From the NCBI GenBank assembly GCA_032691205.1, contig GCA_032691205.1_4541.1: a DNA stretch of 64,000 nt, one strand, 5' to 3'. Source of the DNA: a phage. Under the pieces are notes generated by a model that worked only from the letters and a program-made list of their open reading frames with translations, was not told the origin of the DNA and did no database searches. Below, piece after piece: positions 295 to 34,163 of this stretch (position 1 is its first letter; each line of letters begins with the position of its first letter). The translations under genes were made by a program, and so were the position numbers.

Positions 295-489
295 ATGCAG
301 AGCGGAGAAGAACTTTTAGAGAAACAATTCTCAACGCGTCAACAAGCTTTAAGTTATATGGTTTTTCTAAGCAATCTTGATGTGAATGAGATACTTTTAC
401 AGCGCGAAGGTAATTTCTGGAGCGTTAAATATCATGCAACAAGGTCTGTAATCTACCTGGAAGAGGCGGAATTCTCTTTGGTAGAATGA
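295..489 (+). CDS. hypothetical protein (64 aa)
   Basis: ORF track; RBS AAGGAGGG upstream of ATG. Confidence 0.55.
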   Translation: MQSGEELLEKQFSTRQQALSYMVFLSNLDVNEILLQREGNFWSVKYHATRSVIYLEEAEFSLVE

Positions 490-1076
490 TCCGAGGAGTA
501 GTTATGCGTTCAACTTTCACTGGCAAAATAAATGCTGGTTTGATTTTTACAGCAGTAAGCATTCTTAGCAAAAAGTTTAAAGTTGTTAACTTACCTGTGT
601 GTGTCGATTTCGATCATGTTTTTGATCCTTCGAACCCCACTCGTTGCATAGTAAGGAGTAATGTTGAAAACCCAACAGAAAATCTTTTTTATGTAACAAA
701 ACCATCTCAAAGCATACTTAACCAGGTTGAGGCGAAATTGATACCTAACGGTAAATATTACTCCTTTTTACCTTGTAAGTCGGTTGAAGTAGAGAATAGC
801 AATACTTTCGCTAATAACTTGTCTGTATTCGTTTTCTTTGTTTCACAGGAAGACGAAACAGATGAAATGGTAGCAACAGTGAGATCACTTTATGACTCTT
901 TAGGGGTTGTTTATAGTCAACAGGTGTGCGAAAATAATAAATCCTGTGTAGATTTCATTATCAACGGTATTTGTGTTTGTAGAGTAGAATCTTTTTGGCT
1001 GCACGATACATATGTGACTGTAGCAGAGGTTATATCTGAACCAAGATTTAGTCATGCGGTTTCGTTAATAATTTGA
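486..1076 (+). CDS. hypothetical protein (196 aa)
   Basis: ORF track; ATGA stop/start overlap with upstream gene. Confidence 0.55.
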   Translation: MIRGVVMRSTFTGKINAGLIFTAVSILSKKFKVVNLPVCVDFDHVFDPSNPTRCIVRSNVENPTENLFYVTKPSQSILNQVEAKLIPNGKYYSFLPCKSVEVENSNTFANNLSVFVFFVSQEDETDEMVATVRSLYDSLGVVYSQQVCENNKSCVDFIINGICVCRVESFWLHDTYVTVAEVISEPRFSHAVSLII

Positions 1077-1086: not shown

Positions 1087-1416
1087 ATGGAAATTACTAC
1101 AGAACAAGCCCTTATCGACGAGGGTCGTAAAATCTTAGAAAAGTATTTAGAGGAGATTCATAAAACCCCTGGCTATTTGGGTTGGAGAATTGTTGAAGCT
1201 GTAGATTTCCTTCCTCGTAACAGTAAAAGCGTCGAAATGCGATCTCTTTTCTTATTAGTAAAGGTGGATGGGGATACACCTTTTAAAGATGCCGCAGAAC
1301 ATATTGAAAAAGTTGAAGAGAAAGCTTATGCAGAATTTGCCGATCTTGTTTTAGAACAAGAGATTGAAGGAAAGGTGAATATTTTTATTTTCTTAGATTT
1401 TGAGGAGGATAAGTGA
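1087..1416 (+). CDS. hypothetical protein (109 aa)
   Basis: ORF track; RBS GAGGAGG upstream. Confidence 0.6.
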   Translation: MEITTEQALIDEGRKILEKYLEEIHKTPGYLGWRIVEAVDFLPRNSKSVEMRSLFLLVKVDGDTPFKDAAEHIEKVEEKAYAEFADLVLEQEIEGKVNIFIFLDFEEDK

Positions 1417-2156
1417 TCATACACAGAGAAATTACTGTTAAAAGCGATCAAGATCTTTTTATAATTGGAGATCTACACGGTTGTTATAATTTGTATGAAA
1501 AAGGAAAGGCAAAGTTAGGTATCCGAGATACAGATGTGGTTGTATCTCTAGGAGATCTTACTGACCGTGGAAAGCAAAACTTTCGTTGTGTTTTAGAATT
1601 TACTCGTAAACACAATCGCTACGCTATTCGTGGCAATCATGAAGACATGATGATTAAAGGTATGCTGGAAGGAGATCGTAGCTACTACGAGTGTTGGTAT
1701 CAAAATGGAGGATATACGGTCTTTGAAGAATGTGGTGAAGAAGGAGCTACAGCCTTAGCAATGATGACAGAAGATTTACCTGTTGTTCTCATTGTTAACT
1801 ACAGAGGCATGAAACTTGCGTTTATTCATGGTGGGTATCCATCTTCTTTGGAATATCTCCCTGTAACAGATATTCCAGAATACATTTCGAAGATGACAAA
1901 AACACAGGAAAACCGTTTTGCTGAAGCACTTATGTGGGACAGAGATATGGTAGACTGTGCTAAAGAGGGAATGAAACTTCCTGTTGTGATGGGTGTGGAT
2001 TATGTGTTTCATGGACACTCTTATGTAAAAACACCTATTATCAATGCGAATCGTGTTTATATGGATACTGGATCTGTGTTCAATAATAACTTAACATTTG
2101 CTTATTTCGATATGGACGGTGGTCTTCAATTTTATTCAACTCTTGAGGAGGATTAA
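1413..2156 (+). CDS. PPP-family metallophosphatase (Ser/Thr phosphatase or ApaH-like)
   Basis: Motifs GDLHG, GDLTDRG, GNHE in canonical order in the translation. Confidence 0.8.
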   Translation: MIIHREITVKSDQDLFIIGDLHGCYNLYEKGKAKLGIRDTDVVVSLGDLTDRGKQNFRCVLEFTRKHNRYAIRGNHEDMMIKGMLEGDRSYYECWYQNGGYTVFEECGEEGATALAMMTEDLPVVLIVNYRGMKLAFIHGGYPSSLEYLPVTDIPEYISKMTKTQENRFAEALMWDRDMVDCAKEGMKLPVVMGVDYVFHGHSYVKTPIINANRVYMDTGSVFNNNLTFAYFDMDGGLQFYSTLEED

Positions 2157-2464
2157 TGTATAAGATTACAATTATTCAAAGTGTAGGTAATATCCGTAAA
2201 GAAGTTATCTTAGAAACAGAAGATGTTAATCTTGTTCGTAAGATTGTTCTTAAGGAAGATAACCTGCAAGCTGTAGAATCAGATGCACCGAATCTTATGG
2301 TGGATCAAGAATATTCTGAACTTCGTCGTATTTTTGAAGAGATTCAGAAGAAAGAAACACAACCGACCATAAAACCTTTTGGTCCTTATGATCCGAGCAA
2401 TCCTAGCAGTCCTTGGATCATGAGAAATACGGAACCGTATACACCTTTTGAAATTACTTGTTGA
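2156..2464 (+). CDS. hypothetical protein (102 aa)
   Basis: ORF track; start overlaps upstream stop. Confidence 0.55.
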   Translation: MYKITIIQSVGNIRKEVILETEDVNLVRKIVLKEDNLQAVESDAPNLMVDQEYSELRRIFEEIQKKETQPTIKPFGPYDPSNPSSPWIMRNTEPYTPFEITC

Positions 2465-2471
2465 GGTGATT

Positions 2472-3053
2472 ATGGCAGAACTGTTCTATACGGGAGTTGG
2501 AAGTAGAGACATATCCGAAGAAGAGTGGGCTTTGATGGTAGGCATAGGGAAATGGCTTTCAAACCTTGGGTTTAAATTAAGGTCTGGGAAGGCAGAGGGT
2601 AGTGATTCTGCTTTTGAAACAGGTGTCCAAGAGTCTGAAAATCCTACTAACAAGGAGATTTATGTTCCTTGGGAAAATTTCAAAGGTAATCAGATTCCAG
2701 GGGATGTTATTGTTCTTGCAAAACCAGATACAATGAACTATGCTATCTCTGTGCAATGGATCAAAGATGTTCACCCAGCCTATGAAAAGCTTAAGCAGGG
2801 TGCTAGAAAATTGCACCAACGTAATGTGCATCAAGTGTTAGGTAGAGATTTGGAGAATCCTGCTCCATCATGTTTCTTGTTGGCTTGTGCTAATACTGAT
2901 AAACATGGAGATGCAAAAGGTGGAACAGCTACGGCTTGGAAGATAGCTAAAGCCAATAATGTTCCTTGTTTAAACATTCGTGGGAAAACAAAACAAGAGA
3001 TTTACGATTTTCTACGACCTTTGGTAATGAGGGCAATAACAAGTGATTCCTAA
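2472..3053 (+). CDS. SLOG/DprA-like Rossmann-fold protein (putative)
   Basis: Start moved to ATG 2472 (RBS GAGGTGA); motif GVGSR ... SGKAEGSD resembles DprA/LOG-type nucleotide-binding loop. Confidence 0.5.
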   Translation: MAELFYTGVGSRDISEEEWALMVGIGKWLSNLGFKLRSGKAEGSDSAFETGVQESENPTNKEIYVPWENFKGNQIPGDVIVLAKPDTMNYAISVQWIKDVHPAYEKLKQGARKLHQRNVHQVLGRDLENPAPSCFLLACANTDKHGDAKGGTATAWKIAKANNVPCLNIRGKTKQEIYDFLRPLVMRAITSDS

Positions 3054-4786: not shown

Positions 4787-4796
4787 TAAATAATAA

Positions 4797-4817
4797 CCCG
4801 CTTCGGCGGGTTTTTTA
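4797..4817 (+). terminator. rho-independent terminator
   Basis: cccgcttcggcggg hairpin followed by T7 tract. Confidence 0.7.
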
Positions 4818-4876
4818 TTGACAGGAATCTGGAAGCTTGATAAACTTAACCTATCAACCAATAGAGGAGAAATATT

Positions 4877-5818
4877 ATGGTGTTAATTGGTAGCCGTGCA
4901 TTGCAAATTCATGCTATGGACATGGGAAAAGACTTGTATCGCCCTTGTGTAGATTTAGATTACCTGTGTACAGAACAAGAGTGGGAAGAATTATCAAAAA
5001 TGTTCTCTCAAGACGAGTTTGTTGAACTTGTAGAACGTAAAGGGAACAAAGGCCATGTCAAAATGATAGCTGGCGCACATTTGGAATACGATATTGCTTC
5101 TCAAGGAGATAGCACAGAAGCTTTGATTAGTTATTGTGAAGATTCTGATGATGTTCGTCGAACTTACGCTGGACATGTTGTTGCTCCTTTAGATGTGCTC
5201 TACCTTCTTAAAATGAGTCATCGTTTTAAAAAGGATAGTCCTCACTTCTTTAAAACTATGAAAGATATTCATTTCATGCGGTCACTGGGCGCAAAGATCC
5301 CAGAAAATCTTAAGAGTATTTATGAGTTGCGTGAGAAAGAAACATACACTTACTCTCATCCGAACTTAAACGTAAAAAGTAAAGACTTCTTTAAAGGTGA
5401 TGAGGTTCCGTATGTTTATGATCATGATTCTATCCATGAAGCAATCGCGGTAATGGATGCTCCAGCATATAAATCTTATATGAAAGATGGAAGTGAAGTT
5501 ATGACCAGCAAAGAAAAGTTTTTTGCTCAACCAAAACATGTGCGCCTGTTAGGTGTTTATGAAGAAGCGTGTGTTTTGGCTTTGGAACGTTCACAAATTC
5601 CTTTCGGTGAAGAGATCGGAGGTCCAACCCCTAAGCAAAGTTTTATAATGGCTTTATCTAAAGTCTGCACATCCATCACTAGTGGTTGGTTTAGGGAATA
5701 TGCTTGGGAAAACCTTTATGTTGTTATTAAGCTATATGAAAACATGGGCGAAAACGACTATGTTGAACGTTTTAAAGCTAATCAACATGTAGTAAAGCCT
5801 TTTGAAGGAGGTTATTAA
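4877..5818 (+). CDS. putative nucleotidyltransferase-fold protein (313 aa)
   Basis: RBS GAGGAG; N-terminal GSRA...DLDY resembles Pol-beta-type NTase G[SG]-x-D-x-D motif (weak). Confidence 0.55.
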   Translation: MVLIGSRALQIHAMDMGKDLYRPCVDLDYLCTEQEWEELSKMFSQDEFVELVERKGNKGHVKMIAGAHLEYDIASQGDSTEALISYCEDSDDVRRTYAGHVVAPLDVLYLLKMSHRFKKDSPHFFKTMKDIHFMRSLGAKIPENLKSIYELREKETYTYSHPNLNVKSKDFFKGDEVPYVYDHDSIHEAIAVMDAPAYKSYMKDGSEVMTSKEKFFAQPKHVRLLGVYEEACVLALERSQIPFGEEIGGPTPKQSFIMALSKVCTSITSGWFREYAWENLYVVIKLYENMGENDYVERFKANQHVVKPFEGGY

Positions 5819-7566: not shown

Positions 7567-8052
7567 ATGTTTCAAGTAAATGTCAATGTGCATAATAGTT
7601 ACTCTGATTGTGAAACGTGTGGCTATAATTCATCTAATGTTATTCGTATTAGTGGCGATTTAGGAGAAGCTTCTTTTGGAGAAGAAGCAAGTTGCTTTAG
7701 TGGTATGGATGCAGAATGGAATGATATTGCACATTGGTTAGTGAGCAAACTAAAAGAAAAAGAGAAACCATTTCCTACTCTGCTTGATCGTTCTCTTGTG
7801 GAAGATGCAGGTAAAGCATATGCAGACTATGCGTATGCAGACGGGAAATATTTGGAAGATGATAAGGCTAACCATTTGCTTTATGTTTATTATGAAGCTG
7901 AATCTGCCTACGATAATTATTACAGCATGTCTAACATCCTACGTCTGTTTGCAGAGTTTGATATTTATTTCGAAGTAGAATTTTCAGAAGATGATGTTTA
8001 TGAATATGATTCTTATGATCCATTTGAGGAGGAAGAATGCCAAGACGAGTGA
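7567..8052 (+). CDS. acidic hypothetical protein (161 aa)
   Basis: ORF track; RBS AGGAGGG. Confidence 0.55.
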   Translation: MFQVNVNVHNSYSDCETCGYNSSNVIRISGDLGEASFGEEASCFSGMDAEWNDIAHWLVSKLKEKEKPFPTLLDRSLVEDAGKAYADYAYADGKYLEDDKANHLLYVYYEAESAYDNYYSMSNILRLFAEFDIYFEVEFSEDDVYEYDSYDPFEEEECQDE

Positions 8053-8852
8053 TTTTTGTAAGTGGCGCAGGACTATCTGTGGATAGCGGTATCCCAGCTT
8101 TTAGAACAGATACTTCTTCAGGGGAGGCGTTATGGTCTTCTTATAATCTTTCTGAAGTCTGTGACATTTTCAACTTCCGTGACGGGTATCAGCAAGAACA
8201 AGGTATTCTTGATGCTATGGGCGGTTTAGATGCGGAAGGATATAACCTCTACCGTAAAACTCACGACTTTTACAATAAACGTCGCGCGGAATTAGAGAAA
8301 GTTGACCCGAATCCGGCACATCTTCAGATTGGGGAATGGTTCAAAAAACATGGTGCAGAAAAGATTATTAACATCACTACTAACGTTGATGACCTCCTTG
8401 AACGAGCAGGAGTAGATAGGGAAGAAGTGCTACATGTGCATGGTTTTCTTCCTGAAATTACTTTTCAAAGAAAAGCTGGACAACCTACAATTGTAAAAGA
8501 TGTTGGTTATCAAGCCATAGATGTAGATGACTACCATTATGTAAAACCTAATGTAATCTTCTTTGGGGAAGCTGCTCCACTTTACACAGATATGTATCAT
8601 ATTTTTGATACACTGACGGCTCAAGATATGGTTATCGTTGTAGGCTGCTCTAACCAAGTAATCAACTTCAACTGGGAACTCTTCCCTGCCCTGAATATTG
8701 GGGTTAAGATGGTTGTAGTTAACCCAGGTTTGAATTTTGTAGAACAAACTCTCTACGAAGAACGTGGAGTGCTTGTCTACCGAGAGAAAGCAGGAACAGT
8801 CTTCAGTGATGAAGGCTTTATCAAAATGGTTGAAGACCATTTAAACAAATAA
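8037..8852 (+). CDS. SIR2-family (sirtuin-like) protein lacking zinc ribbon
   Basis: Motifs GAGLSVDSGIPAFR, TTNVDDL..HVHG, IFFGE, VVGCS; no Cys pairs. Confidence 0.75.
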   Translation: MPRRVIFVSGAGLSVDSGIPAFRTDTSSGEALWSSYNLSEVCDIFNFRDGYQQEQGILDAMGGLDAEGYNLYRKTHDFYNKRRAELEKVDPNPAHLQIGEWFKKHGAEKIINITTNVDDLLERAGVDREEVLHVHGFLPEITFQRKAGQPTIVKDVGYQAIDVDDYHYVKPNVIFFGEAAPLYTDMYHIFDTLTAQDMVIVVGCSNQVINFNWELFPALNIGVKMVVVNPGLNFVEQTLYEERGVLVYREKAGTVFSDEGFIKMVEDHLNK

Positions 8853-24758: not shown

Positions 24759-25212
24759 TGCTCTCTCCTCCTAACTCATCATACCATTTCAAAGCGTCTT
24801 TTGGAAGCATACCAAAATCTTCTTTTAGTTCTTTTTCAATCTCTTCTTGCATTTCCATCAGCGTTTTCAGTTGACGGACTTTTTTGTGCATAGCCACATT
24901 CCTTTCATTAAGGTTTGTCACTACATTATTTGTACGACTCGGTGGAAATGACAAAGGTTTCACGGGAAGATAATCTTCGATATTATCTAGTGCGTTACGA
25001 AAATTATGATCCAAGAAACGCACATCTACACGATTGTAATCAGCAGCTACAACAGTGAACACTTTAAACGGCACATTGGATAAAGTATGTTGCACACAGA
25101 CAGTACCCATATTACCTTCAATTTTACTGGTAACTTCCAGCAAACCTGTATGAGCACTAACATAATCGTGAACACATTGCACATAAGCTGCCAGTATAGT
25201 GAATTGTCTCAT
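24751..25212 (-). CDS. hypothetical protein (153 aa)
   Basis: ORF track. Confidence 0.55.
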   Translation of the reverse strand: MRQFTILAAYVQCVHDYVSAHTGLLEVTSKIEGNMGTVCVQHTLSNVPFKVFTVVAADYNRVDVRFLDHNFRNALDNIEDYLPVKPLSFPPSRTNNVVTNLNERNVAMHKKVRQLKTLMEMQEEIEKELKEDFGMLPKDALKWYDELGGESNV

Positions 25213-25457
25213 TTTCTACCTCCCCATAATGCTAACATTTTATTGAAAATGGAAACGCGTCGTGCGCGAGATGCCATATCATAATTCATTCTTTCCGTCT
25301 CTGCAAGAAATTGATCTACTGTAATCAACGCTTCTGTCTTCTCTTTCAGAGTTTGCATATTCATCCATTCACATTCAGAGTACCAATTATCGAAATACAA
25401 ACTATCGAGAAGATCCATTGCTGCTTCATTCTGTTGTGGTGTGATCATTGCACACAA
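25209..25457 (-). CDS. hypothetical protein (82 aa)
   Basis: ORF track. Confidence 0.5.
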   Translation of the reverse strand: MCAMITPQQNEAAMDLLDSLYFDNWYSECEWMNMQTLKEKTEALITVDQFLAETERMNYDMASRARRVSIFNKMLALWGGRK

Positions 25458-25460
25458 CCT

Positions 25461-25691
25461 TTAATAGACAATTTCATATTCGTGAGGAAAGAAAACATAA
25501 TCTTCCCCTTCTCGTGCATCTATCTCGTCCCAAAACCATTCCTGCACTTCCATCATCTTCGAGAATCGCACATGAGCAAGCCCACTGTATTCCACAGTAG
25601 CTTCCAACACAAGTGGAAATTTTGCATGTGCCAATCCTTTATAACCACCATCATTCTCAATACGAATTTTCATGCGTTTCATGTTATGCAT
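25461..25691 (-). CDS. paralog family B member
   Basis: ORF track; EWFWDE..DYVFF. Confidence 0.5.
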   Translation of the reverse strand: MHNMKRMKIRIENDGGYKGLAHAKFPLVLEATVEYSGLAHVRFSKMMEVQEWFWDEIDAREGEDYVFFPHEYEIVY

Positions 25692-25893
25692 CCTTCAGAC
25701 CCTTAATAAAGTAACGACCAACCGGATTCCCTCGGAAGTATTCGTTAATGAAATCGATAACACACGTTTCACTGCCTGTCACAACGGACGGCTTAAAGTT
25801 TTGGAATTCTACAACTACACGGCTGGCTTTAGCCAGTGCTTGCACACGTGTAGGATCAGTCAAGAACATTGTGACAGTTTTCAAATTCTTCAT
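25684..25893 (-). CDS. hypothetical protein (69 aa)
   Basis: ORF track. Confidence 0.5.
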   Translation of the reverse strand: MKNLKTVTMFLTDPTRVQALAKASRVVVEFQNFKPSVVTGSETCVIDFINEYFRGNPVGRYFIKGLKDA

Positions 25894-25942
25894 TTCATCT
25901 CCTCATTGGCTATCTGTTATGTCATCCATTATACAAACATCT

Positions 25943-26311
25943 TTATTCAATGCAAGCATTATTTGCATCTTCAATCCGATCTTTCACCCACTGAAGACGT
26001 AACGTGTTGGTATGACACGCCAAGTTTATACACTCTGAAAGGTAATCCATGCAATCCACATTGAACGGAAGATTGTAGTCCAGCCCTGCACATGTAAATT
26101 GTTTCCTCATTTCATATTTCAAACGGTCCAACAAATGATCACGCCATTTTCTATCTTCTTCTCTAGGTGTATCACCAACAAAATCATCTACATAATCTAC
26201 CAGACAACCACATAAGCCACTCGTTGTGCGATTCATTGCAGGATAGTTGGCAATCCATGCTTTATAGAAGCGAAGCAATGTTGCACTGCTCAACGGAATA
26301 CTATTTGTCAT
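25943..26311 (-). CDS. paralog family A member
   Basis: Track ORF trimmed to ATG 26311 after AAGGAGAG; GLC, PFN, WVKDR. Confidence 0.6.
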   Translation of the reverse strand: MTNSIPLSSATLLRFYKAWIANYPAMNRTTSGLCGCLVDYVDDFVGDTPREEDRKWRDHLLDRLKYEMRKQFTCAGLDYNLPFNVDCMDYLSECINLACHTNTLRLQWVKDRIEDANNACIE

Positions 26312-26645
26312 CTTTCTCTCCTTCATAATCTTGAATTCTATCTAGCACCCATTGTATACGATGTTTGTTTTTATGGCAAATATGTTTTTTATGTTCAAAG
26401 GTGTATTCCTCATAACCACCTTCATTAAACGGGAAATTGTAATCCAATCCTGCACCAATAAACTGTGATTTCATCTCCTGTTGTAGACGAGGTAACAGTT
26501 CATCAGGATATGTTCCCTCTACATACTTAATCAAACATATGCACAAGCCACTCGTTGTGTGACCTTCTACCTCACCAGCAAGCCAAGCTTTGTAAAACTT
26601 CATTAGACGTAAACTACTTAACGGAACATTTTTACTCTCTTGCAT
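26301..26645 (-). CDS. paralog family A member
   Basis: ORF track; FYKAW, GLC, PFN, WVLDR. Confidence 0.6.
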   Translation of the reverse strand: MQESKNVPLSSLRLMKFYKAWLAGEVEGHTTSGLCICLIKYVEGTYPDELLPRLQQEMKSQFIGAGLDYNFPFNEGGYEEYTFEHKKHICHKNKHRIQWVLDRIQDYEGEKDDK

Positions 26646-26985
26646 GACAATCTCCTCTCATCGTTAGCCATCTTTCATGGCAATCATCAATCACCAACAT
26701 CATACGATCAATCTTAAGGAATTACAATCGAATTATCATAGGGGATTCCTATCAATTATCCCATATATACCGATTATTTTTGACACCCCCACTCTTGTAT
26801 AAAAAGTAACCCAAAATATCTACGGGGAGAGATTATTTCGACACACCCTGTTTCATGGCAATCATGGCAAGAATATCTAATAGAATCAATATGATATGGC
26901 AAAAATCATGGCGCATACGTAAGAAGTGCTTAACGCGAATTTTCGGGCCGTCAGGTCCACGCAGCGACAATTCCCAAATATCATG

Positions 26986-27008
26986 CGAATGAGAATAATT
27001 ATCATTCG
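26986..27008. promoter_or_regulatory. Fur-box-like palindrome (candidate operator)
   Basis: cgaatgagaataattatcattcg, near-palindromic. Confidence 0.3.
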
Positions 27009-27338
27009 TATTCAATGACTTATGCAAGGCTCATGCCAACATAGCGACAAGGTGGGCCACCTGATTATAAATCACACAAACACTTATTTATCAATGGCTT
27101 GGCAACTTCATCATATGACGGAACAATGTCAACTGATCCCGCTCATGACAAGCAGACTATTATTTATATGAGAATGATTATTATTTAAACGTTTATTAAC
27201 ATAAAAACTAAAATAAATCAAGATTATTCTGATTTTATTTACGTTTAAGAGAAGGTGCTCAACATATCGCGTAGCGATAGTATTCGCCCCCAAAATTATT
27301 GACTTTTATTCTATTATGTGCATAGTGTGCAATGTATC

Positions 27339-27357
27339 GGAATGATGATAATCATCC
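27339..27357. promoter_or_regulatory. Fur-box-like palindrome (candidate operator)
   Basis: ggaatgatgataatcatcc. Confidence 0.3.
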
Positions 27358-27400
27358 TCCCATTGCCCCCATAATTATTGCCATGCTAATTGTTTCCTTA

Positions 27401-27423
27401 CATAATCATTACAATGATTATTG
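27401..27423. promoter_or_regulatory. inverted repeat ATAATCATT/AATGATTAT
   Basis: cataatcattacaatgattattg. Confidence 0.3.
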
Positions 27424-27901
27424 TTATTGCGCTAATGTTATGATCTTGGTAATTACATATAATGCTAATAATAAGCCAGCGCAATAAGTGTAAGCGTCAT
27501 TACGCTTGCAATTATTGCAAGCTACGCAGTAACAAGAAATAACCGTCACCGATGGTTATGATTGTTGGGGTGTAGTTGGCTTATTATTAGCTCGCTATGT
27601 GTCCGGCATAGCGTGCTAATGATGACTCTGTGAATGATTCGTTTTGTAATGATTTCATTCAGGCACTATTTTGCTAATAGTTATTATTTTAATGGTTTCG
27701 TTTGTTATTGTTCGTTAGTTGGTTGTTTTGTCGTGTTATCGTTATCTTGCTTAGTATTCATCATGGTTCGATTGTTTGTCGTTATCAATCATCTTGCTAT
27801 TATTCCTTTGATTATGATTAGTTTGCTTATTGTTTTATGTTGTTTGTTGGTTAGTTGTTGCGAACTATTATCAACATTATAATTATGCGCTTATATTGCA
27901 T

Positions 27902-27937
27902 AGATAATCATGGGTAGATGATAATGGTTATCATTGC
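27902..27937. promoter_or_regulatory. tandem Fur-box-like sites
   Basis: agataatcatgggtagatgataatggttatcattgc. Confidence 0.3.
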
Positions 27938-28142
27938 ACTAGAAAGGAGGTAAAAGGGTGTTTTTGATGGTTTGTTGTTGGTTGTTGATCGATTTTAACC
28001 GCTCTAAATGGCTCTCTAACAGCCTGTAACCCTGGGAGGTATGGTTATTCGTTTGCTGGTTGATTAGCTCGATACCGCAATTTATTCAGTTTTGTTCTGT
28101 GTCGGTTTTCCATAGGCGGAATCTATCAACATTGTTCGGGGC

Positions 28143-28169
28143 AAAAAGAAAGGGCGCTCGGTGCGCCCC
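28143..28169 (-). terminator. rho-independent terminator (minus strand)
   Basis: gggcgctcggtgcgccc hairpin; U-rich tract on minus strand. Confidence 0.6.
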
Positions 28170-28184
28170 TTGTTTTGTTGTCGA

Positions 28185-28604
28185 TTATAACGCTTCATAG
28201 ATTGAGTAGATCCGGTTTGCCAGGTCATTACGAAAGCGGAATTTTTCATCACGTTTAATCATCAGATCCTTAAAACCGTATTCTTTCAATGCTTCATTAA
28301 CTTTATGGCGGCAAACGTTCATATTATCCTGCGCGTCACCAATAAACTTATTACTGTGATGCATTGCTTTGATCTCTTCCTCTAATACCAGGGCAACTAC
28401 ACGGATCGGATCAAGCTGATATGCGGTAACATCCATGCGGCATTGTAAACGGCTTTTAACATCGTTTACCGGATACACTGCAACCTCTTCCCCGTCAACG
28501 TTCACGATAACCAATTTACCATCAATTTCGAAGCCTTTGGCGGCGCTACCGTGACAAAAAGCGTTATCGAAGGAGTAAGCTGGATTATTTGATTTAATGT
28601 TCAT
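28185..28604 (-). CDS. hypothetical protein (139 aa)
   Basis: ORF track; RBS AAGGA. Confidence 0.6.
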   Translation of the reverse strand: MNIKSNNPAYSFDNAFCHGSAAKGFEIDGKLVIVNVDGEEVAVYPVNDVKSRLQCRMDVTAYQLDPIRVVALVLEEEIKAMHHSNKFIGDAQDNMNVCRHKVNEALKEYGFKDLMIKRDEKFRFRNDLANRIYSIYEAL

Positions 28605-28639
28605 GGTGTTGTCCTTTGTTTCGTTTCGTTGTTTGCTGC

Positions 28640-28672
28640 CAGTGAGTTAAATATAATATAACGCCGATCCCC
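28640..28672 (-). promoter_or_regulatory. promoter with -35 inside a hairpin (TTGACA ... TATTAT)
   Basis: Minus-strand read cccctaTTGACAgggg...TATTAT upstream of 28185-28604. Confidence 0.45.
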
Positions 28673-28715
28673 TGTCAATAGGGGATAGCGCATTATTTAC
28701 ATTTCTTTACGTTAA

Positions 28716-28732
28716 AGGGCGCTTAGTGCGCC
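28716..28732 (-). terminator. GC hairpin downstream of 28746 gene (possible terminator)
   Basis: gggcgcttagtgcgccc. Confidence 0.4.
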
Positions 28733-28745
28733 CCCTTGTATAATC

Positions 28746-29114
28746 TTACTTTGTGCGGTTGTGAACGTTATCGCGTTCAACCATCAGGGCAAGGCGGATC
28801 AGTTGATCAGTTGTATCGCGTAAATTGTCGGGCCATGTTTTACTGTTCCAGCTATCCAGGTTTGATTGTATATAGGTTTCAATGGCTTGATCCATACTAT
28901 CAAACAAGTTTTCCTCCAAGCTCTCGGCTGTTTCACACTGGAAAGCATTAGCGACACTGTTAATCAATAAGCAAGCCAGTAAATCAGCATTACGCCAATT
29001 TTTACGGATAGTTTCATCTGTCAGATAACAAACGAGATTAACCTTTGCGCCAGTGGTTGACGTTGCGATCACTTCTTGTGCTTTTTCAAGTGCTTTAATT
29101 GCTGATTTGCTCAT
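28746..29114 (-). CDS. hypothetical protein (122 aa)
   Basis: Track ORF trimmed to ATG 29114 (RBS AGAGGA) so that it begins downstream of the promoter cassette. Confidence 0.55.
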   Translation of the reverse strand: MSKSAIKALEKAQEVIATSTTGAKVNLVCYLTDETIRKNWRNADLLACLLINSVANAFQCETAESLEENLFDSMDQAIETYIQSNLDSWNSKTWPDNLRDTTDQLIRLALMVERDNVHNRTK

Positions 29115-29131
29115 TTTATTTTCCTCTTTGT

Positions 29132-29192
29132 GGGCTTGCTGTATTGCTCGCCCTACGTGATAAATAATAATGTAAGCGTGATCCGGTGTCAA
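29132..29192 (-). promoter_or_regulatory. PeSL-like cassette (degenerate hairpin + TTGACA promoter)
   Basis: -35 tgtcaa at 29187-29192 (plus-strand spelling); gccctacgtg box. Confidence 0.45.
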
Positions 29193-29321
29193 TAGGTAGG
29201 ATTGTAAAGATTTGATAGTTTATCTCTTTGATGTTTTGTTGTTTGATAGGTATTAGCTATCGATATATAGCGGGATCTTCCGGTGATTATCTTCCCCTGC
29301 TCCCAGGTGCCGCCCGTTCAA

Positions 29322-29355
29322 TAAGTATAACAAAAAACAGGACAAAAACAAGCCC
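29322..29355 (-). terminator. rho-independent terminator (minus strand)
   Basis: aacaggg...ccctgtt hairpin; T-rich after it on minus strand. Confidence 0.45.
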
Positions 29356-29367
29356 TGTTTATTTATC

Positions 29368-29502
29368 TTAAAACCAGGTGCCAACCGTTTCCAATAGGTC
29401 GCTGACTACTAGGACAACATTGATCAGCACATGTTCAACCATGAAGGGGATAAGCGCCAGCGTTGCTACTACGATCCCCATTGTGATGATTACCTTTCTC
29501 AT
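29368..29502 (-). CDS. small membrane peptide (44 aa), not in ORF track
   Basis: Own translation MRKVIITMGIVVATLALIPF...; ATGA overlap with upstream gene. Confidence 0.4.
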   Translation of the reverse strand: MRKVIITMGIVVATLALIPFMVEHVLINVVLVVSDLLETVGTWF

Positions 29503-29789
29503 TGTTGGCGGTTTACGTAAGCTTTACCGTTTACGGTCATCGGTATGGCCTCAAGGTCTGGATCTCCCTTAAGGTCGCGTGCAAGCTCACCGCAGCGGGT
29601 ACCCTCGAATCCGTAGTACTCTGTTGTGCCGTCCTGGAAAGTTTTAGCGGCAAGGCATAGGCGATAATTAACGCCGATCCGGTTTATTGCGTTGATATCG
29701 GTTAGCGCGATGGATTCTGGCAACTCATTAGCCAGTACAGGCGCGTTAATACCAACAACCAGGGCAACTACTGCGATCATCTTTTTCAT
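29499..29789 (-). CDS. small secreted protein with signal peptide (96 aa)
   Basis: N-terminus MKKMIAVVALVVGINAPVLA. Confidence 0.55.
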   Translation of the reverse strand: MKKMIAVVALVVGINAPVLANELPESIALTDINAINRIGVNYRLCLAAKTFQDGTTEYYGFEGTRCGELARDLKGDPDLEAIPMTVNGKAYVNRQQ

Positions 29790-29843
29790 GCGTCTATCCT
29801 CTTCCTATTGCGTTTAATGGGGTGTTACCGCCCCGCTTATGGT

Positions 29844-30080
29844 TTATTGATTGATGTTATGATGAAAGTTATTTTCTTCAATAGCTTTTAAAATAAAAGC
29901 CGTGATCGCTTTCGTGTCTACTTGTTCGAACGTATCAGAATAAGCCCAATAATAATCATCCCCTACTTTCGGCGGGTAAACCTGGACAAGGAGATCGCCA
30001 CCTGGTTGATCTATAAGCTCAACATGCAAGCCGGATGATTCAGCGGTTTTAACGGCGTTTAATACTGTTGCAATACTCAT
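29844..30080 (-). CDS. hypothetical protein (78 aa)
   Basis: ORF track; GC hairpin in 5' leader. Confidence 0.55.
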   Translation of the reverse strand: MSIATVLNAVKTAESSGLHVELIDQPGGDLLVQVYPPKVGDDYYWAYSDTFEQVDTKAITAFILKAIEENNFHHNINQ

Positions 30081-30124
30081 AATCTTTTCCTTTCTGATGT
30101 GGGGCGTTGCCGCCCCTTTGTTGA

Positions 30125-30424
30125 TTAGATCGCTGTTTCCAGTAGTTCGGCTAACGTCTTACCGCCTGATAGTTGGTCTAACGTTTGCTCTTCTGGCAAG
30201 AAATTAGCTGATATTAAACCAACTTGATTTCCTTTGTGCCAGTTAGCCTGGCGGATGATTCCATCCTTTAAAGATTTTACCGCCATTGTGCAACCGTCGC
30301 CAAATGATTCATTTTTATGGTCCATCACTTCATAAGCGCCCAGTTTGCTGCTGTTAGGCACCATTAACGCGAACACATCACCAACAACCAGTTTTTCTAC
30401 GGTAACAATAGCGATAGTTTCCAT
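30125..30424 (-). CDS. hypothetical protein (99 aa)
   Basis: ORF track; RBS GAGGAAAG. Confidence 0.55.
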   Translation of the reverse strand: METIAIVTVEKLVVGDVFALMVPNSSKLGAYEVMDHKNESFGDGCTMAVKSLKDGIIRQANWHKGNQVGLISANFLPEEQTLDQLSGGKTLAELLETAI

Positions 30425-30442
30425 TTTACTTTCCTCATTATC

Positions 30443-30498
30443 GGCGGCACCATTGCCGCCCTACGTGGTAAATATTAGCACACTGCCGATCTGTGTCA
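30443..30498 (-). promoter_or_regulatory. PeSL-like cassette: TTGACA N17 TAATAT promoter + stem-loop ggcggcaccattgccgcc
   Basis: Hairpin 30443-30460; -35 at 30493-30498. Confidence 0.6.
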
Positions 30499-30505
30499 AT
30501 ACTTT

Positions 30506-30892
30506 TTATTCAATATAAATCAAATTATCTTCACCAATGTAAGCCGACACGTTCGGCATAAACTTAGCTGCATTTGTTAGGCGGTTGGCTGTGTTAGTGG
30601 TGTATATTTCAGGGCGATCCCAAAAGCCTACGCCGTGACTGTTACGGGTAAAATGTAAATCATTCCCGATCTGGTTGGCTGTTGCGCCGTCGCTCATTGC
30701 CTCAGAGATAGCGGCAAGATTAGCATTAATAAAGGCTGTTACATCCTGGGCGATCCGTTCGTCCGCGCTAGGAGAAAAATCATAATCAGTCATGTCATCT
30801 ATAAAATTACCTTCATGATCCCTTGCGGATTCAGCAAAAATAAAGGCTTCTTTATAACCGTTGATGATTTCAATAATGATTTCTGTTTTCAT
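30506..30892 (-). CDS. hypothetical protein (128 aa)
   Basis: ORF track. Confidence 0.6.
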   Translation of the reverse strand: MKTEIIIEIINGYKEAFIFAESARDHEGNFIDDMTDYDFSPSADERIAQDVTAFINANLAAISEAMSDGATANQIGNDLHFTRNSHGVGFWDRPEIYTTNTANRLTNAAKFMPNVSAYIGEDNLIYIE

Positions 30893-31104
30893 GCTGTACG
30901 CTCGACAATAATAATAGTTTGCGGGATCTCATTTTCTACTACTAACAAGGCTTTTTTCTGCGTAATAGATATTTTAACACGTTGTAACGTGGCGGTAAAG
31001 TCTTTCATCTCATTATGCGCGGATTTAGTGCAATGCCAGATCTCAGGCTTACCTATTTGCAAGCCGCGTAAAAATTCTGTTTTACCTGTCTTATTCGTGA
31101 TCAT
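30889..31104 (-). CDS. hypothetical protein (71 aa)
   Basis: Track ORF (TTG start) trimmed to ATG 31104 after AAGGTG. Confidence 0.5.
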   Translation of the reverse strand: MITNKTGKTEFLRGLQIGKPEIWHCTKSAHNEMKDFTATLQRVKISITQKKALLVVENEIPQTIIIVERTA

Positions 31105-31114
31105 TTGATTCACC

Positions 31115-31219
31115 TTAACCAATACCGTGGGAAGATAGGATCATATTAGCCATAGTTGCAACCAATCCAACCGATAACGCCAGGCCAACTATTACAACCG
31201 TGAAAATTTTCTCTAACAT
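31115..31219 (-). CDS. small hydrophobic peptide (34 aa), not in ORF track
   Basis: Own translation MLEKIFTVVIVGLALSVGLVATMANMILSSHGIG. Confidence 0.35.
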   Translation of the reverse strand: MLEKIFTVVIVGLALSVGLVATMANMILSSHGIG

Positions 31220-31237
31220 GATTCTACCCTCATTAAT

Positions 31238-31299
31238 GGGCGTTGCCTTATTGCCCCGCCCTACGAAATACATTCTATCAGATAACAAATTATCGTCAA
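31238..31299 (-). promoter_or_regulatory. PeSL-like cassette (variant hairpin gggcgttgcc..gccccgccc)
   Basis: -35 cgtcaa at 31294-31299. Confidence 0.5.
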
Positions 31300-31442
31300 G
31301 ATTTATTTTTTACTTCCCAAACGGAAAATTCGCTGCCTGTTGGGATCATCTTTTTAATCTTGTTTGCTGCCGCTACCAGGTCAACGGCTTGCACTGTAAT
31401 AATATAACCAATTGTCGAGGCTGTTGCGTTGAAAGTTTTCAT
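31296..31442 (-). CDS. small protein (48 aa), not in ORF track
   Basis: Own translation MKTFNATASTIGYIITVQAVDL...; stop lies within the downstream -35. Confidence 0.4.
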   Translation of the reverse strand: MKTFNATASTIGYIITVQAVDLVAAANKIKKMIPTGSEFSVWEVKNKS

Positions 31443-31486
31443 TATATTATCCTTTAATACAGGCGGGATTAATCCCGCCTTATTAA

Positions 31487-31657
31487 TTACTCTTCATCGT
31501 CGCCGTTATAGTATTCAATGCCGTTTTCATCGGTTACAGTGATGTTAACGCCACCGATAGCAACACGATCACGGGCAAACGTCATAGCTTCATTTAAATC
31601 TTCAGACCAAAAAATATTGTGACCTTTGCGCGATACATAAAACATAGTCGGGATCAT
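31487..31657 (-). CDS. hypothetical protein (56 aa)
   Basis: Track ORF trimmed to ATG 31657 because the cassette hairpin lies inside the track ORF. Confidence 0.45.
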   Translation of the reverse strand: MIPTMFYVSRKGHNIFWSEDLNEAMTFARDRVAIGGVNITVTDENGIEYYNGDDEE

Positions 31658-31680
31658 GATTTGTTTCTCTTCTGTTGTGA

Positions 31681-31741
31681 GCGGTGGACCATTCCGCCGC
31701 CCTATGTGGTAAACTTTACTACGTTGTTTGCGTGCTGTCAA
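31681..31741 (-). promoter_or_regulatory. PeSL-like cassette (hairpin gcggtggaccattccgccgc)
   Basis: -35 tgtcaa at 31736-31741. Confidence 0.55.
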
Positions 31742-31742
31742 A

Positions 31743-32078
31743 TTATTTTTTAATGTTTTGCCCTACAAAATTAATCATTTCCTTAAGCTGTCTCTCTGTC
31801 ATGATCGTACCTGGTAACTCTTCTTTAATTTCTTCCGGTAAATAAATATTACCGCGCCAGGTTAACAAACAACCGTTTTGATCTTCGCAGATAGAATAGG
31901 AAAACATCCACTCGCAATCATTTTCAAGCTCCCAAAAACACAAAAAGTCTTCTTTCCCTAAGTTTTCAACGGTTAAACATAATCCGCGACGTGCTGCATA
32001 ATTAGTTAGGCTTTTTGTGATTTTCATGATTTTTCTCTCTTCTTGTGAGCGGCACCATTGCCGCCCTACAAGATACAT
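31743..32078 (-). CDS. hypothetical protein (111 aa)
   Basis: ORF track. Confidence 0.55.
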   Translation of the reverse strand: MYLVGRQWCRSQEERKIMKITKSLTNYAARRGLCLTVENLGKEDFLCFWELENDCEWMFSYSICEDQNGCLLTWRGNIYLPEEIKEELPGTIMTERQLKEMINFVGQNIKK

Positions 32079-32104
32079 ATTACCAGACTAAGCCGACTTG
32101 TCAA
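32049..32104 (-). promoter_or_regulatory. PeSL-like cassette (hairpin gcggcaccattgccgcc)
   Basis: -35 tgtcaa at 32099-32104. Confidence 0.55.
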
Positions 32105-32105
32105 A

Positions 32106-32216
32106 CTATTTTTTCTTTTTCTTTGCTTCCAACCGTCTAAGGTTACGGCTTGACTTATTGCGCAAGGCGCTTAGATCGTCGTACCCTTTCCATGCTTGCA
32201 TATCTTTCGGATTCAT
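32106..32216 (-). CDS. small basic protein (36 aa), not in ORF track
   Basis: Own translation MNPKDMQAWKGYDDLSALRNKSSRNLRRLEAKKKKK; RBS AAGGGG. Confidence 0.35.
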   Translation of the reverse strand: MNPKDMQAWKGYDDLSALRNKSSRNLRRLEAKKKKK

Positions 32217-32225
32217 GTTATCCCC

Positions 32226-32387
32226 TTACTTGTTAGCCGGATTATATGCCAGGACCGCGCCGCTTGCTTTCACGCTTTCCGCTTCATAGTTGCGCAGATC
32301 GTTTTCTGTAAGGTTGAGCGCGATCACTTCCTCGATCTCAACGTCAGCGGCAAGGGCGATCTCTTTGATAATGTCTGTTGTTTTCAT
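32226..32387 (-). CDS. small protein (53 aa), not in ORF track
   Basis: Own translation MKTTDIIKEIALAADVEIEEVIALNL... Confidence 0.4.
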   Translation of the reverse strand: MKTTDIIKEIALAADVEIEEVIALNLTENDLRNYEAESVKASGAVLAYNPANK

Positions 32388-32397
32388 AGTACGCACC

Positions 32398-32517
32398 TTA
32401 TAAGATGATTGATAAGATAGTGATAACGAAAGCGATTATACTGATGGCAAATGTCATCTTTTTACCTTCGGATACTGCCGGATTCTCTACCGTGTATTCT
32501 ACTGTGTACTTGCTCAT
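32398..32517 (-). CDS. small membrane peptide (39 aa), not in ORF track
   Basis: Own translation MSKYTVEYTVENPAVSEGKKMTFAISIIAFVITILSIIL. Confidence 0.4.
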   Translation of the reverse strand: MSKYTVEYTVENPAVSEGKKMTFAISIIAFVITILSIIL

Positions 32518-32537
32518 CGTGTAATCCTCTCGTTTGC

Positions 32538-32597
32538 TTTGGGAACTATTCCCGCCGCCCTATGAATTAAATATACACTATCTCAAAATGATTGCAA
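32538..32597 (-). promoter_or_regulatory. PeSL-like cassette (hairpin gggaactattccc; -35 TTGCAA)
   Basis: -35 at 32592-32597. Confidence 0.5.
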
Positions 32598-32613
32598 GCC
32601 TTTTTCTAAATTT

Positions 32614-32928
32614 TTATGCAGTAAACAAACCATCATTTACAACGGCGGCGATGATCTCCCGCGCCATTGATTCAGGGAAAGGGGCGCTATAGTCCTGGCT
32701 TGTCTCATCGGTATCAGTGATCCAATGATAAGCTAACGAGTAAAAGCCTTTACTAACTGTTTTCAGTGAGATGACGATCACTCGGTCAAGCTTATTGGTG
32801 AATGTTGCCGTTAATGTGTTACCCTCCTGCGTCATGTTGGACAAGTAAGCGGGATCATTAATCAGGGAAAACATTAGCACGGTGTTAGCTTTACTCATGA
32901 TTGCATCCTCAAAGGGGCGCGGCACCAT
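32614..32928 (-). CDS. hypothetical protein (104 aa)
   Basis: ORF track. Confidence 0.55.
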   Translation of the reverse strand: MVPRPFEDAIMSKANTVLMFSLINDPAYLSNMTQEGNTLTATFTNKLDRVIVISLKTVSKGFYSLAYHWITDTDETSQDYSAPFPESMAREIIAAVVNDGLFTA

Positions 32929-32974
32929 TGCCGCCCTACACGATAACTATAACACAATGTAAAACAGGATCAAC
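32917..32974 (-). promoter_or_regulatory. PeSL-like cassette (hairpin gcggcaccattgccgcc; -35 TTGATC)
   Basis: Hairpin about 32919-32935. Confidence 0.45.
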
Positions 32975-33176
32975 CTTTATTTTTCCACGGTGTCAGCTTG
33001 TTAATCATTGGTGATAAATAGCGTTTACCAACGTAAAACAGCACGCCAACTGATGCAACGGCGGCGATCTCATGCATAGCCGACGGGAAACGGGTATCAT
33101 AATAAGATCCAATAATAGCAATAGCGGCAACGGCTGCAACGTCGATAATGATTTTTTCTTGTTTTGCGGTGATCAT
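32970..33176 (-). CDS. small membrane protein (68 aa)
   Basis: Track ORF trimmed to ATG 33176; two hydrophobic segments. Confidence 0.45.
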   Translation of the reverse strand: MITAKQEKIIIDVAAVAAIAIIGSYYDTRFPSAMHEIAAVASVGVLFYVGKRYLSPMINKLTPWKNKG

Positions 33177-33196
33177 AATATTTACCTTTTTGTATG

Positions 33197-33256
33197 GTGG
33201 GGGAACTATTCCCCGCCTGATGTAATACAGTTTAACAGGTCCGGTTATGGTGTCAA
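33197..33256 (-). promoter_or_regulatory. PeSL-like cassette (hairpin gggggaactattcccc)
   Basis: -35 tgtcaa at 33251-33256. Confidence 0.55.
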
Positions 33257-33262
33257 CCACTT

Positions 33263-33448
33263 TTAAAGATATTTTATACTGATAACGTTTTCCGGTTTAA
33301 CCTTGTTGTGATGTGCATCAACATAGATCAAACCATCGTCAGAAAAGCCCAGGATCACGCCCTGCGCAATAAAACCGTATTCGTCACGGTAACGCACGGC
33401 TATTTTTAACGTTGCGTTGTAGGCTGTTTTAAGCTCGCTTAAAGTCAT
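33263..33448 (-). CDS. hypothetical protein (61 aa)
   Basis: ORF track. Confidence 0.5.
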   Translation of the reverse strand: MTLSELKTAYNATLKIAVRYRDEYGFIAQGVILGFSDDGLIYVDAHHNKVKPENVISIKYL

Positions 33449-33465
33449 CTTTGTTTATCCTCTAC

Positions 33466-33496
33466 ATGTAAAAAGAAAGGGCGCTTGGTGCGCCCC
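33466..33496 (-). terminator. rho-independent terminator (minus strand)
   Basis: gggcgcttggtgcgccc hairpin; U tract on minus strand. Confidence 0.6.
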
Positions 33497-33504
33497 TTAT
33501 TATG

Positions 33505-33651
33505 TTAATCCTCTAAATCCATCCAATTATATTTGTCACTCTTCCCGCGCTTTGTTTTATTGCGCTTGTCGCCTTTGCGGATCACTTCCTCGTTCCAGGC
33601 CTTGCGGATCTTGGAAGATTGAATTTTTTCTGCGCGATTAGATGTATTCAT
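33505..33651 (-). CDS. small basic protein (48 aa), not in ORF track
   Basis: Own translation MNTSNRAEKIQSSKIRKAWNEEVIRKGDKRNKTKRGK... Confidence 0.4.
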   Translation of the reverse strand: MNTSNRAEKIQSSKIRKAWNEEVIRKGDKRNKTKRGKSDKYNWMDLED

Positions 33652-33671
33652 TTTGTTTCCTCTTCATATGA

Positions 33672-33724
33672 GCGGCACCATTGCCGCTATATTGTTAATT
33701 TAAGCTGTTTTGTAAAATTGTCAA
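33672..33724 (-). promoter_or_regulatory. PeSL-like cassette (hairpin gcggcaccattgccgc)
   Basis: -35 tgtcaa at 33719-33724. Confidence 0.55.
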
Positions 33725-33730
33725 GGTTTA

Positions 33731-34160: not shown

Positions 34161-34163
34161 GCT

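Follow-up and report, generated by a model that had tools for sequence, protein, structure and literature searches.

The window, by which we mean the whole stretch of phage DNA analysed here (64,000 nt), is 99% identical across its first 8 kb to Escherichia phage ECML-183-2 and 96–99% identical to many phAPEC8/ESCO13-like phages (genus Phapecoctavirus, subfamily Stephanstirmvirinae). Close to its start, a tightly packed string of co-directional plus-strand genes contains a gene for a SLOG domain protein (Table 1). The ORF is a real gene; its product has exact counterparts (100% identity) among the annotated proteins of WPEC2, vB_EcoM_EP57 and TSP7_1, and the RefSeq record of ESCO13 annotates both a CDS and an RBS at the equivalent position. 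ATG 2472, rather than TTG 2448, was taken as the start codon because of the GAGGTG element in front of it; the upstream ORF ends with a stop at 2462–2464. As an object the gene is already known, being identical to annotated GenBank genes and assigned to a named PHROG, and the window by itself provides one more copy of it and no new biology.

The phosphatase encoded upstream matches Pfam Metallophos (PF00149, 2.7e-13, residues 17–203), phrog_246 'NinI-like serine-threonine phosphatase' (1.8e-75) and NCBIfam PrpA/PrpB-like models (1e-26), the last with 94 and 83 bits against equivalog cut-offs of 326 and 332. The preliminary description had set this enzyme immediately upstream of the SLOG gene; its PPP-family identity holds, but a 102-aa ORF lies between the two genes. 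A terminator-like hairpin found downstream by consensus scan probably closes, at its 3′ end, the transcription unit with the phosphatase and SLOG genes, and SLOG probably shares its timing with other accessory genes of early or middle expression.

Table 1. Features of the SLOG locus and ADP-ribose-related genes of the window
Feature	Position	Strand	Remarks
PPP/calcineurin-like metallophosphatase gene	1413–2156	+	NinI/lambda-PPase-like; one gene from SLOG in the co-directional string
102-aa ORF of unknown function	2156–2464	+	phrog_15301; between phosphatase and SLOG genes
Shine–Dalgarno GAGGTG of SLOG gene	2463–2468	+	3 nt before ATG 2472; read from sequence
SLOG gene	2472–3053	+	193-aa stand-alone DprA-type SLOG domain protein, phrog_768
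Codons of G8-V-G-S-R12	2493–2507	+	Loop after strand 1; DprA 'G-S/T/A-R' motif
Codons of R37-S-G-K-A-E-G-S-D45	2580–2606	+	Glycine-rich loop with GxD signature
Codons of L114-H-Q-R-N118...Q121..G124	2811–2843	+	Helix after strand 3; fits DprA [F/L/Y]-x-x-R-[N/D]
Codons of K149-G-G-T-A-T-A155	2916–2936	+	Corresponds to DprA 'SGSLxTA'
Strong terminator-like hairpin	4795–4812	+	Followed by a sigma-70-like promoter (4818–4846); consensus scan
SIR2-family (sirtuin) gene	8037–8852	+	Pfam SIR2, E 3.2e-21; separate gene 5 kb downstream of SLOG
Stand-alone NADAR gene	39922–40464	-	PF08719, 7.8e-36; phmmer 1.6e-24 to the NADAR half of P0257
Stand-alone DUF4326 gene	50925–51293	+	Pfam, 3.8e-21; phmmer 1.7e-13 to the DUF4326 half of P0205
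Macro gene	62401–62940	+	Pfam, 22.8 bits (cut-off 22); PADLOC DarG, 2.6e-10

Fold, conserved pocket and family assignment

A Rossmannoid α/β fold is common to DprA, LOG, YpsA, MCP, ThsA-SLOG and TRPM N-terminal domains. The protein encoded in the window is a member of the SLOG superfamily with a DprA-like Rossmannoid domain. It is organized as a single domain (residues 4–191 of 193) with the three-layer α/β fold of the superfamily, a glycine-rich loop (G8-x-G10-S11-R12) and a GxD signature (G43-S44-D45); GxD/E at the start of helix 2 is a mark of YpsA-clade SLOG domains (PMC6459960). The phrog_768 HMM matches it at full length (E 2e-62, 211 bits; residues 2–182 on profile positions 2–180 of 191), and next to the annotated family members ESCO13 gp069, phi92 gp047, phiKZ gp207, RB49p164 and Pakpunavirus K5 gp016 it is an ordinary member with no distinguishing feature.

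Comparison of 47 relatives (~40% average identity; 27% mean column identity) disclosed 21 invariant columns, mostly glycines or polar residues of the SLOG motifs: G10, R12, R37, G39, A41, G43, D45, G51, W67, H115, R117, N118, Q121, G124, S133, G150, G151, T152, T154, A159 and N168. S11 and A155 are each conserved in at least 90% of the relatives. The preliminary description had likened GVGSR ... SGKAEGSD to the nucleotide-binding loop of DprA/LOG/SLOG domains, and this assignment is confirmed, the two segments corresponding to residues 8–12 and 38–45 of a SLOG domain; the stretch R37–D45 aligns with 'SGLARGID' of DprA (PDB 3maj/3uqz, E. coli Smf). The L114–N118 segment was equated with the second DprA motif by motif, order and collinearity with 'FPRRNRIISGLS' of E. 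coli Smf, not by residue-level superposition. In the H. pylori DprA–ssDNA structure, G-[STA]-R and [FLY]-x-x-R-[ND] are the signatures of the ssDNA pocket, set there against the LOG signature PGGxGTxxE (PMC3950713). Both DprA signatures are present in the phage protein, as G10-S11-R12 and L114-x-x-R117-N118. Together, the conserved residues line a deep pocket composed of G10/S11/R12, R37-G39-A41-G43-D45, W67, H115-R117-N118-Q121 and G150-G151-T152-T154.

Profile searches place the family next to DprA. Pfam PF02481 (DNA_processg_A) is matched at E<0.1 by 42 of the 47 relatives, with a best value of 2.6e-7. The window protein itself stays under the PF02481 gathering cut-off (12.7 versus 29.6 bits, E 0.073, residues 9–52 only). 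As a single query against PDB sequences it gave no significant match; searched with the family profile, the same collection returned DprA alone (E 0.014, residues 5–48). The Pfam models YpsA (DUF1273) and YspA/YAcAr (PF10686) matched none of the 47 members. Among BFVD models, DprA-like phage proteins superpose at TM 0.7–0.8, viral YspA-like proteins at TM 0.40–0.45 only. LDcluster4 is weakly matched by eight of the 47, with otherwise no significant sequence similarity to LOG, PpnN or the Moco carrier protein. The isoelectric point of the family (median 8.3) does not separate the hypotheses considered below.

The phage protein nevertheless departs from DprA/Smf (PF02481; PDB 3maj, 4ljk, 3uqz) in several respects. 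It lacks the SAM and C-terminal winged-helix (DML1) domains, being 193 aa long against 374 aa for E. coli Smf, and it carries a ~40-residue insertion after strand 3 that contains the invariant W67 and an HP motif. H115 and Q121, specific to this family within the LxxRN region, are additional invariant residues relative to DprA. The family further differs in its occurrence in phages and in its fusions to NADAR and DUF4326.

In LOG/PpnN enzymes and the Chlamydomonas Moco carrier protein (PDB 2iz5, 1rcu, 5wq3, 9us2), the domain carries the catalytic PGGxGTxxE, which is missing from the phage protein. The corresponding position holds K149-G-G-T-A-T-A-W-K157, with no conserved Glu there in the alignment of relatives. 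An N-glycosidase of LOG/PpnN type, acting on ordinary or modified mononucleotides in nucleotide-pool metabolism, would share the Rossmannoid fold; with the catalytic glutamate and its motif replaced by KGGTATAWK, and with LOG-clade SLOG domains confined to a small number of phages (PMC9503650), we regard this role as very improbable.

ThsA offers a second comparison. It holds 3′cADPR through G289/S290, R371, K388, G399 and E403 (10.1101/2022.05.07.491051), and its SLOG domain (PDB 7uxs) has the G-S loop in common with the phage protein. E403, at Gly+4, contacts the distal ribose, whereas the positions four residues beyond G150/G151 are, by motif, T154/A155. ThsA moreover fuses its SLOG domain to a SIR2 effector; the phage protein stands alone, with no SIR2, Macro or TM effector fused to it.

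ShosA of the ShosTA system (PDB 8zva) combines its DprA-type domain with a SAM domain and adjoins a PRTase toxin, and the window gene has neither. Were the phage protein an antitoxin mimic, its ShosA-like DprA domain would neutralise host PRTase–SLOG (ShosTA-type) abortive-infection toxins. The PADLOC ShosA model does pick up the protein (E 0.02 over 39 residues), but the match is limited to the shared SLOG loops, the SAM domain needed for ShosA stability is missing, and contextual support across the family was not found. A PRTase_3 gene in the window (61626–62453), 59 kb from the SLOG gene, has no ShosT match. Such mimicry is thus the most remote of the readings considered, and we give it hardly any weight.

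Distribution, neighbourhoods and fusions of the family

By tblastn, the family occurs in 1,469 of 50,697 phage records (~3%), with carriers among rV5/phi92/phAPEC8-like phages, Pakpunavirus, T4-like RB49, Jiaodavirus, Slopekvirus, T5-like vibriophages and phiKZ (gp207). It thus reaches model phages (phiKZ, RB49 and the rV5/phi92/phAPEC8-like group) as well as PAK_P1-like therapeutic phages. Against 1.84 billion cluster representatives, the family profile yielded 2,124 matches at E<=1e-30. Scanning 185,579 species genomes with a single peptide pattern returned six loci only, all in MAGs, and 29 plasmids carry the family. The phrog_768 SLOG is therefore essentially a mobile-element family of large tailed phages and a few plasmids.

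For the comparison of gene context, ORFs were called in 80 IMG/VR loci, each taken with 6 kb on either side of its SLOG gene, in the ESCO13 locus and in the initial 9.1 kb of the window. The 76 loci with a called SLOG ORF fall into 33 lineages at 60% SLOG identity, and neighbouring ORFs were clustered. Single-protein scans of IMG/VR with RB49p164 and phiKZ gp207 gave just three loci apiece, which left the set of lineages no broader. No neighbouring gene is universal across the 33 lineages. phrog_15301 precedes the SLOG gene in two lineages only (lineages 0 and 14), both rV5/phAPEC8-like relatives, and PhoH lies within 6 kb in nine.

A functional pairing of the SLOG protein with the phosphatase, both of which the preliminary description considered possible sensors or destroyers of nucleotide immune signals, fails on this comparison. 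A PPP phosphatase lies within 6 kb of the SLOG gene in four of the 33 lineages and within 1 kb in two, and we rejected it as a conserved partner; we read the phosphatase of the window as transcribed together with SLOG but functionally unconnected to it. The same counts bear on the idea of a ThsA-like SLOG protein that senses, soaks up or degrades soluble cADPR-type signals and, as a pair with the phosphatase, destroys nucleotide messengers. The shared G-S loop would fit this idea, but the ThsA/LOG glutamate is absent, DprA-like features dominate, and the presumed partner is a lambda-PPase/PrpA-like enzyme found near SLOG in few lineages. We consider it improbable.

NAD-related genes recur in another set of lineages. 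A Macro gene, its assignment confirmed by Pfam, lies 0.35–1.7 kb upstream of SLOG in five of the 33, and the NARP1 NAD+ reconstitution pair, Adps (Prs-like) and Namat (NAMPT-like), lies 0.5–4.6 kb upstream in four. Pakpunavirus K5 carries, one after another, genes for RNA ligase, ATPase, Adps, Namat and phosphatase (Macro), then two small ORFs and SLOG. The arrangement is that of the NARP1-AP operon, in which the Macro protein Adpp extends NARP1 (Osterman et al. 2026, 10.64898/2026.01.28.702374), and SLOG comes last in it. The location of the SLOG gene at the distal end of NARP1/NARP1-AP operons, seen in Pakpunavirus-like phages and one other lineage, is absent from the cited literature. The NARP1/Macro lineages amount to about three independent phage groups. 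From a NARP1 prevalence of 859 in 20,185 genomes and the fraction of the genome sampled, well under one lineage would be expected, a rough figure that ignores the clustering of accessory genes. The proximity of NARP1 and SLOG exceeds this rough expectation, but the excess is only suggestive because accessory genes cluster in large phages.

In about 24 of the 33 lineages, a NAD-related neighbour is absent within 6 kb of SLOG. Other contexts include PhoH, ribonucleotide reductase, dCMP deaminase, RNA ligase 2, Dda helicase and T5-type ligase/replication genes. In T5-like River4 the SLOG gene sits between two NAD-dependent ligase genes of the replication module; in T4-like Jiaodavirus RNA ligase 2 directly precedes it; at another locus it follows a Dda helicase and an HNH gene; and on a conjugative plasmid it lies near an SOS-response-associated peptidase.

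Domain fusions are stronger evidence for a NAD link than the neighbourhood. We surveyed the 150 best of the 2,124 representatives matched at E<=1e-30, among which 11 exceed 280 aa, and scanned ten of these with Pfam. NADAR is fused to the family SLOG in five of the ten, in both domain orders (NADAR–SLOG in P0138 and P0217; SLOG–NADAR in P0257) and within multi-SLOG proteins of ~1,480 aa that join the family SLOG, a YAcAr SLOG, LDcluster4 and NADAR (P0121 and P0122). DUF4326 is fused to the family SLOG in one of the ten (P0205). Where the remaining four show a partner, it is phrog_2072 or phrog_9995; these C-terminal fusions recur (phrog_2072 in P0119 and P0189, phrog_9995 in P0201 and P0207), and neither Pfam nor PHROG gives them a function.

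The fusions also weigh on the assumption that the protein is a classical DprA-like recombination mediator, which would bind phage ssDNA and load or modulate RecA/UvsX-type recombinases, or protect intermediates of replication and recombination, with no connection to NAD. The database name suggests as much; 'DprA-like DNA recombination-mediator protein' is a label transferred by homology. Against this assumption, the SAM and C-terminal domains of DprA are absent from this 193-aa, one-domain protein, its PF02481 score falls below gathering (12.7 against 29.6 bits), and its alignment to E. coli Smf covers 38 residues only. The recurrent fusion partners are NADAR and DUF4326, not recombination proteins, and the extra invariant residues R37, W67, H115, Q121, S133 and N168 suggest a ligand more specific than generic ssDNA. 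We also count against it that the SLOG carrier RB49, a T4-like phage, already has UvsY as its mediator. On balance, a recombination-mediator function is unlikely.

Both fusion partners are encoded as stand-alone genes in the same phage, together with a Macro gene and a gene for SIR2, a NAD-utilising domain (Table 1). The Macro protein matches the NARP1-linked Macro family (phmmer ~1e-29). These genes are scattered at 5–59 kb from SLOG; SIR2 is nearest and none is adjacent.

Proposed role in NAD+/ADP-ribose counter-defence

A link between viral SLOGs and NAD/ADPr has already been published. Iyer, Burroughs, Anantharaman and Aravind (Viruses 2022, PMC9503650) found viral SLOGs enriched in large phages, fused to Macro, NADAR and DUF4326, and co-occurring with them above chance. 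They proposed that these experimentally uncharacterised proteins sense ADPr-derived immune signals or cleave the ribosyl–adenine bond. The phrog_768 family likewise includes stand-alone proteins enriched in large phages, with fusions to NADAR and DUF4326 and neighbouring Macro genes that connect it to the same ADPr network, an independent reproduction of the published pattern. It departs from that account in its affinities: the viral SLOGs were placed mainly in a 'YpsA-like clade', with cADPr degradation predicted for them, whereas the phrog_768 family matches DprA and not YpsA or YspA/YAcAr, and it is also without the LOG/ThsA glutamate. In the literature on DprA-like phage proteins, phiKZ gp207 and YspA/SLOG, we found no experimental result for any family member and no later test of the 2022 proposal. 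The NAD-nucleotide connection drawn in the preliminary description is supported by fusions, neighbours, genes of the same window and PMC9503650, but its analogy with ThsA is not, the glutamate being absent.

We tentatively place the SLOG protein in the phage NAD+/ADP-ribose counter-defence set, as a protein recognising an ADPr-containing ligand, and rate this at slightly less than an even chance. By analogy, its pocket would hold one adenine-type nucleotide, because the DprA pocket holds one flipped-out ssDNA base and the ThsA pocket 3′cADPR. The ligand, which the protein may recognise and possibly process, might be soluble, as a derivative of ADPr, or might be a nucleotide, either ordinary or ADP-ribosylated, carried on single-stranded nucleic acid. 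Partners of the SLOG protein in trans would be the NADAR, Macro and DUF4326 proteins encoded by the same phage and, in other phages, NARP1 enzymes.

NADAR hydrolyses ADP-ribosyl-guanine on ssDNA, and T4 NADAR (AdfN) overcomes DarTG1 (PMC11125620, PMC11825919). Recognition of a nucleotide, ADP-ribosylated or ordinary, on single-stranded nucleic acid would unite the DprA-like and the NAD-linked evidence, since the substrate of NADAR is ADP-ribosylated ssDNA and DprA grips a flipped base. A NARP1-linked Macro protein is an ADPR-1″P phosphatase (10.64898/2026.01.28.702374), and 2′/3′cADPR is cleaved by RyR-domain proteins, not SLOG proteins. A soluble ADPr ligand and a nucleotide on single-stranded nucleic acid are equally possible, and enzymatic processing by the SLOG protein is speculative because the catalytic signature of SLOG N-glycosidases is absent.

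A narrower form of the ADPr reading, possible though rather doubtful, is that the protein serves as a counter-defence factor for a NAD-derived product of host immunity, which it would recognise and might cleave or sequester. One candidate product is an ADP-ribosylated base on phage ssDNA, generated by DarT-type toxins and passed to the phage NADAR or Macro protein. The other is a soluble ADPr derivative that would yield ADPR for the NARP1 pathway; if so, SLOG would be a fourth, overlooked component downstream of the Adps–Namat–Adpp operon in Pakpunavirus-like phages. If the NAD/ADPr link is true, the family would add a further layer to the phage–bacterium contest over NAD+, beside NARP1, Adpp, NADAR/AdfN, Tad and RyDEP, and would be a host-range determinant of phages used therapeutically against E. 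coli, Klebsiella and Pseudomonas.

Other genes in the window with domains linked to NAD+ and ADP-ribose

Apart from the SLOG gene, the window encodes stand-alone NADAR and DUF4326 proteins, the same two domains that are fused to SLOG family members in other viruses. The NADAR fold is also that of T4 AdfN, a counter-factor of DarTG1. A phage-encoded SIR2-family protein had no PADLOC defence match; for sirtuins of rV5-type phages, a role in RNA repair has been suggested (Iyer et al. 2022). Near the end of the window, genes for a HAD-like hydrolase, a ComF-like phosphoribosyltransferase and a DarG-like Macro protein form a co-directional cluster, and the Macro protein is akin to the NARP1-associated Macro family. 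In ShosTA, a defence system of PRTase toxin and DprA-like antitoxin, the PRTase is paired with a SLOG protein; the window PRTase instead adjoins Macro, with the SLOG gene 59 kb away, and returned no ShosT match.

Features of the window, with strand and supporting matches
Feature	Position	Strand	Match
196-aa protein labelled 'histidyl tRNA synthetase'	486-1076	+	phrog_4806, E 2e-64
313-aa DUF7277 + DUF7275 protein, phrog_2141	4877-5818	+	E 8.6e-14 and 2.2e-75
SIR2-family protein	8037-8852	+	Pfam SIR2, 3.2e-21
~12-kb stretch, small ORFs only (<150 aa)	25200-37200	mostly -	
Stand-alone NADAR	39922-40464	-	PF08719, 7.8e-36; PADLOC PDC-M42C, 1e-35
486-aa protein with five CapR-homology repeats, adjoining 379-aa AAA/STAND-like ATPase	41012-43700	-	E 3.3e-28
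Stand-alone DUF4326	50925-51293	+	3.8e-21
HAD-PRTase_3-Macro cluster (three genes)	60956-62940	+	
HAD-like hydrolase	60956-61633	+	
PRTase_3, ComF-like phosphoribosyltransferase	61626-62453	+	E 8.9e-42
Macro domain protein, DarG-like	62401-62940	+	PADLOC, 2.6e-10

Neighbours and fusion partners of the SLOG family

In Pseudomonas phage K5 (NC_030910.1, 1507-6076) and at further phage loci (L056, L079, L072 and L015), a SLOG gene occupies the distal end of an operon of NARP1, the Adps-Namat pair for NAD+ reconstitution, or of NARP1-AP, which adds a Macro phosphatase. The genes run from Adps and Namat through the Macro phosphatase and then one or two small ORFs to SLOG. The NARP1 and aRES papers mention no SLOG or DprA-like gene, and the Macro scan of the aRES paper spanned only two genes on each side of each NARP1 system.

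Other settings differ. In the T5-like Vibrio phage River4 (NC_055847.1, 3357-6461), the NAD-dependent DNA ligase is encoded as two separate pieces within the replication module, and between them lies the SLOG gene, accompanied by two small ORFs. On the conjugative Novosphingobium plasmid pLA1 (MOBF/MPF_F; NZ_CP009294.1, 5992-6504), the family member lies amid a run of small hypothetical genes, with genes for an SOS-response-associated peptidase and a DUF736 protein nearby; as a guess, this string could be a leading-region set for anti-defence or ssDNA handling.

Recurrent fusion partners among the long SLOG proteins include phrog_2072, which forms the C-terminal ~150 aa of P0119 and P0189 and contains the motif VFVFGSN..G.HGAG, and phrog_9995, the N-terminal ~125 aa of P0201 and P0207. 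Neither fused segment had a Pfam match.

Remaining genes and regions of the window

The 'histidyl tRNA synthetase' label is probably a propagated misannotation, because it lacks Pfam support and a HisRS is far longer than this 196-aa product. The whole window contains no tRNA genes; a tRNA cluster is present elsewhere in related phage genomes. The DUF7277-DUF7275 gene probably opens a new transcription unit, directly 3' of a predicted terminator/promoter pair (4795-4846). In the stretch of small ORFs, G+C rises to 0.41-0.43 and the AT skew is negative.
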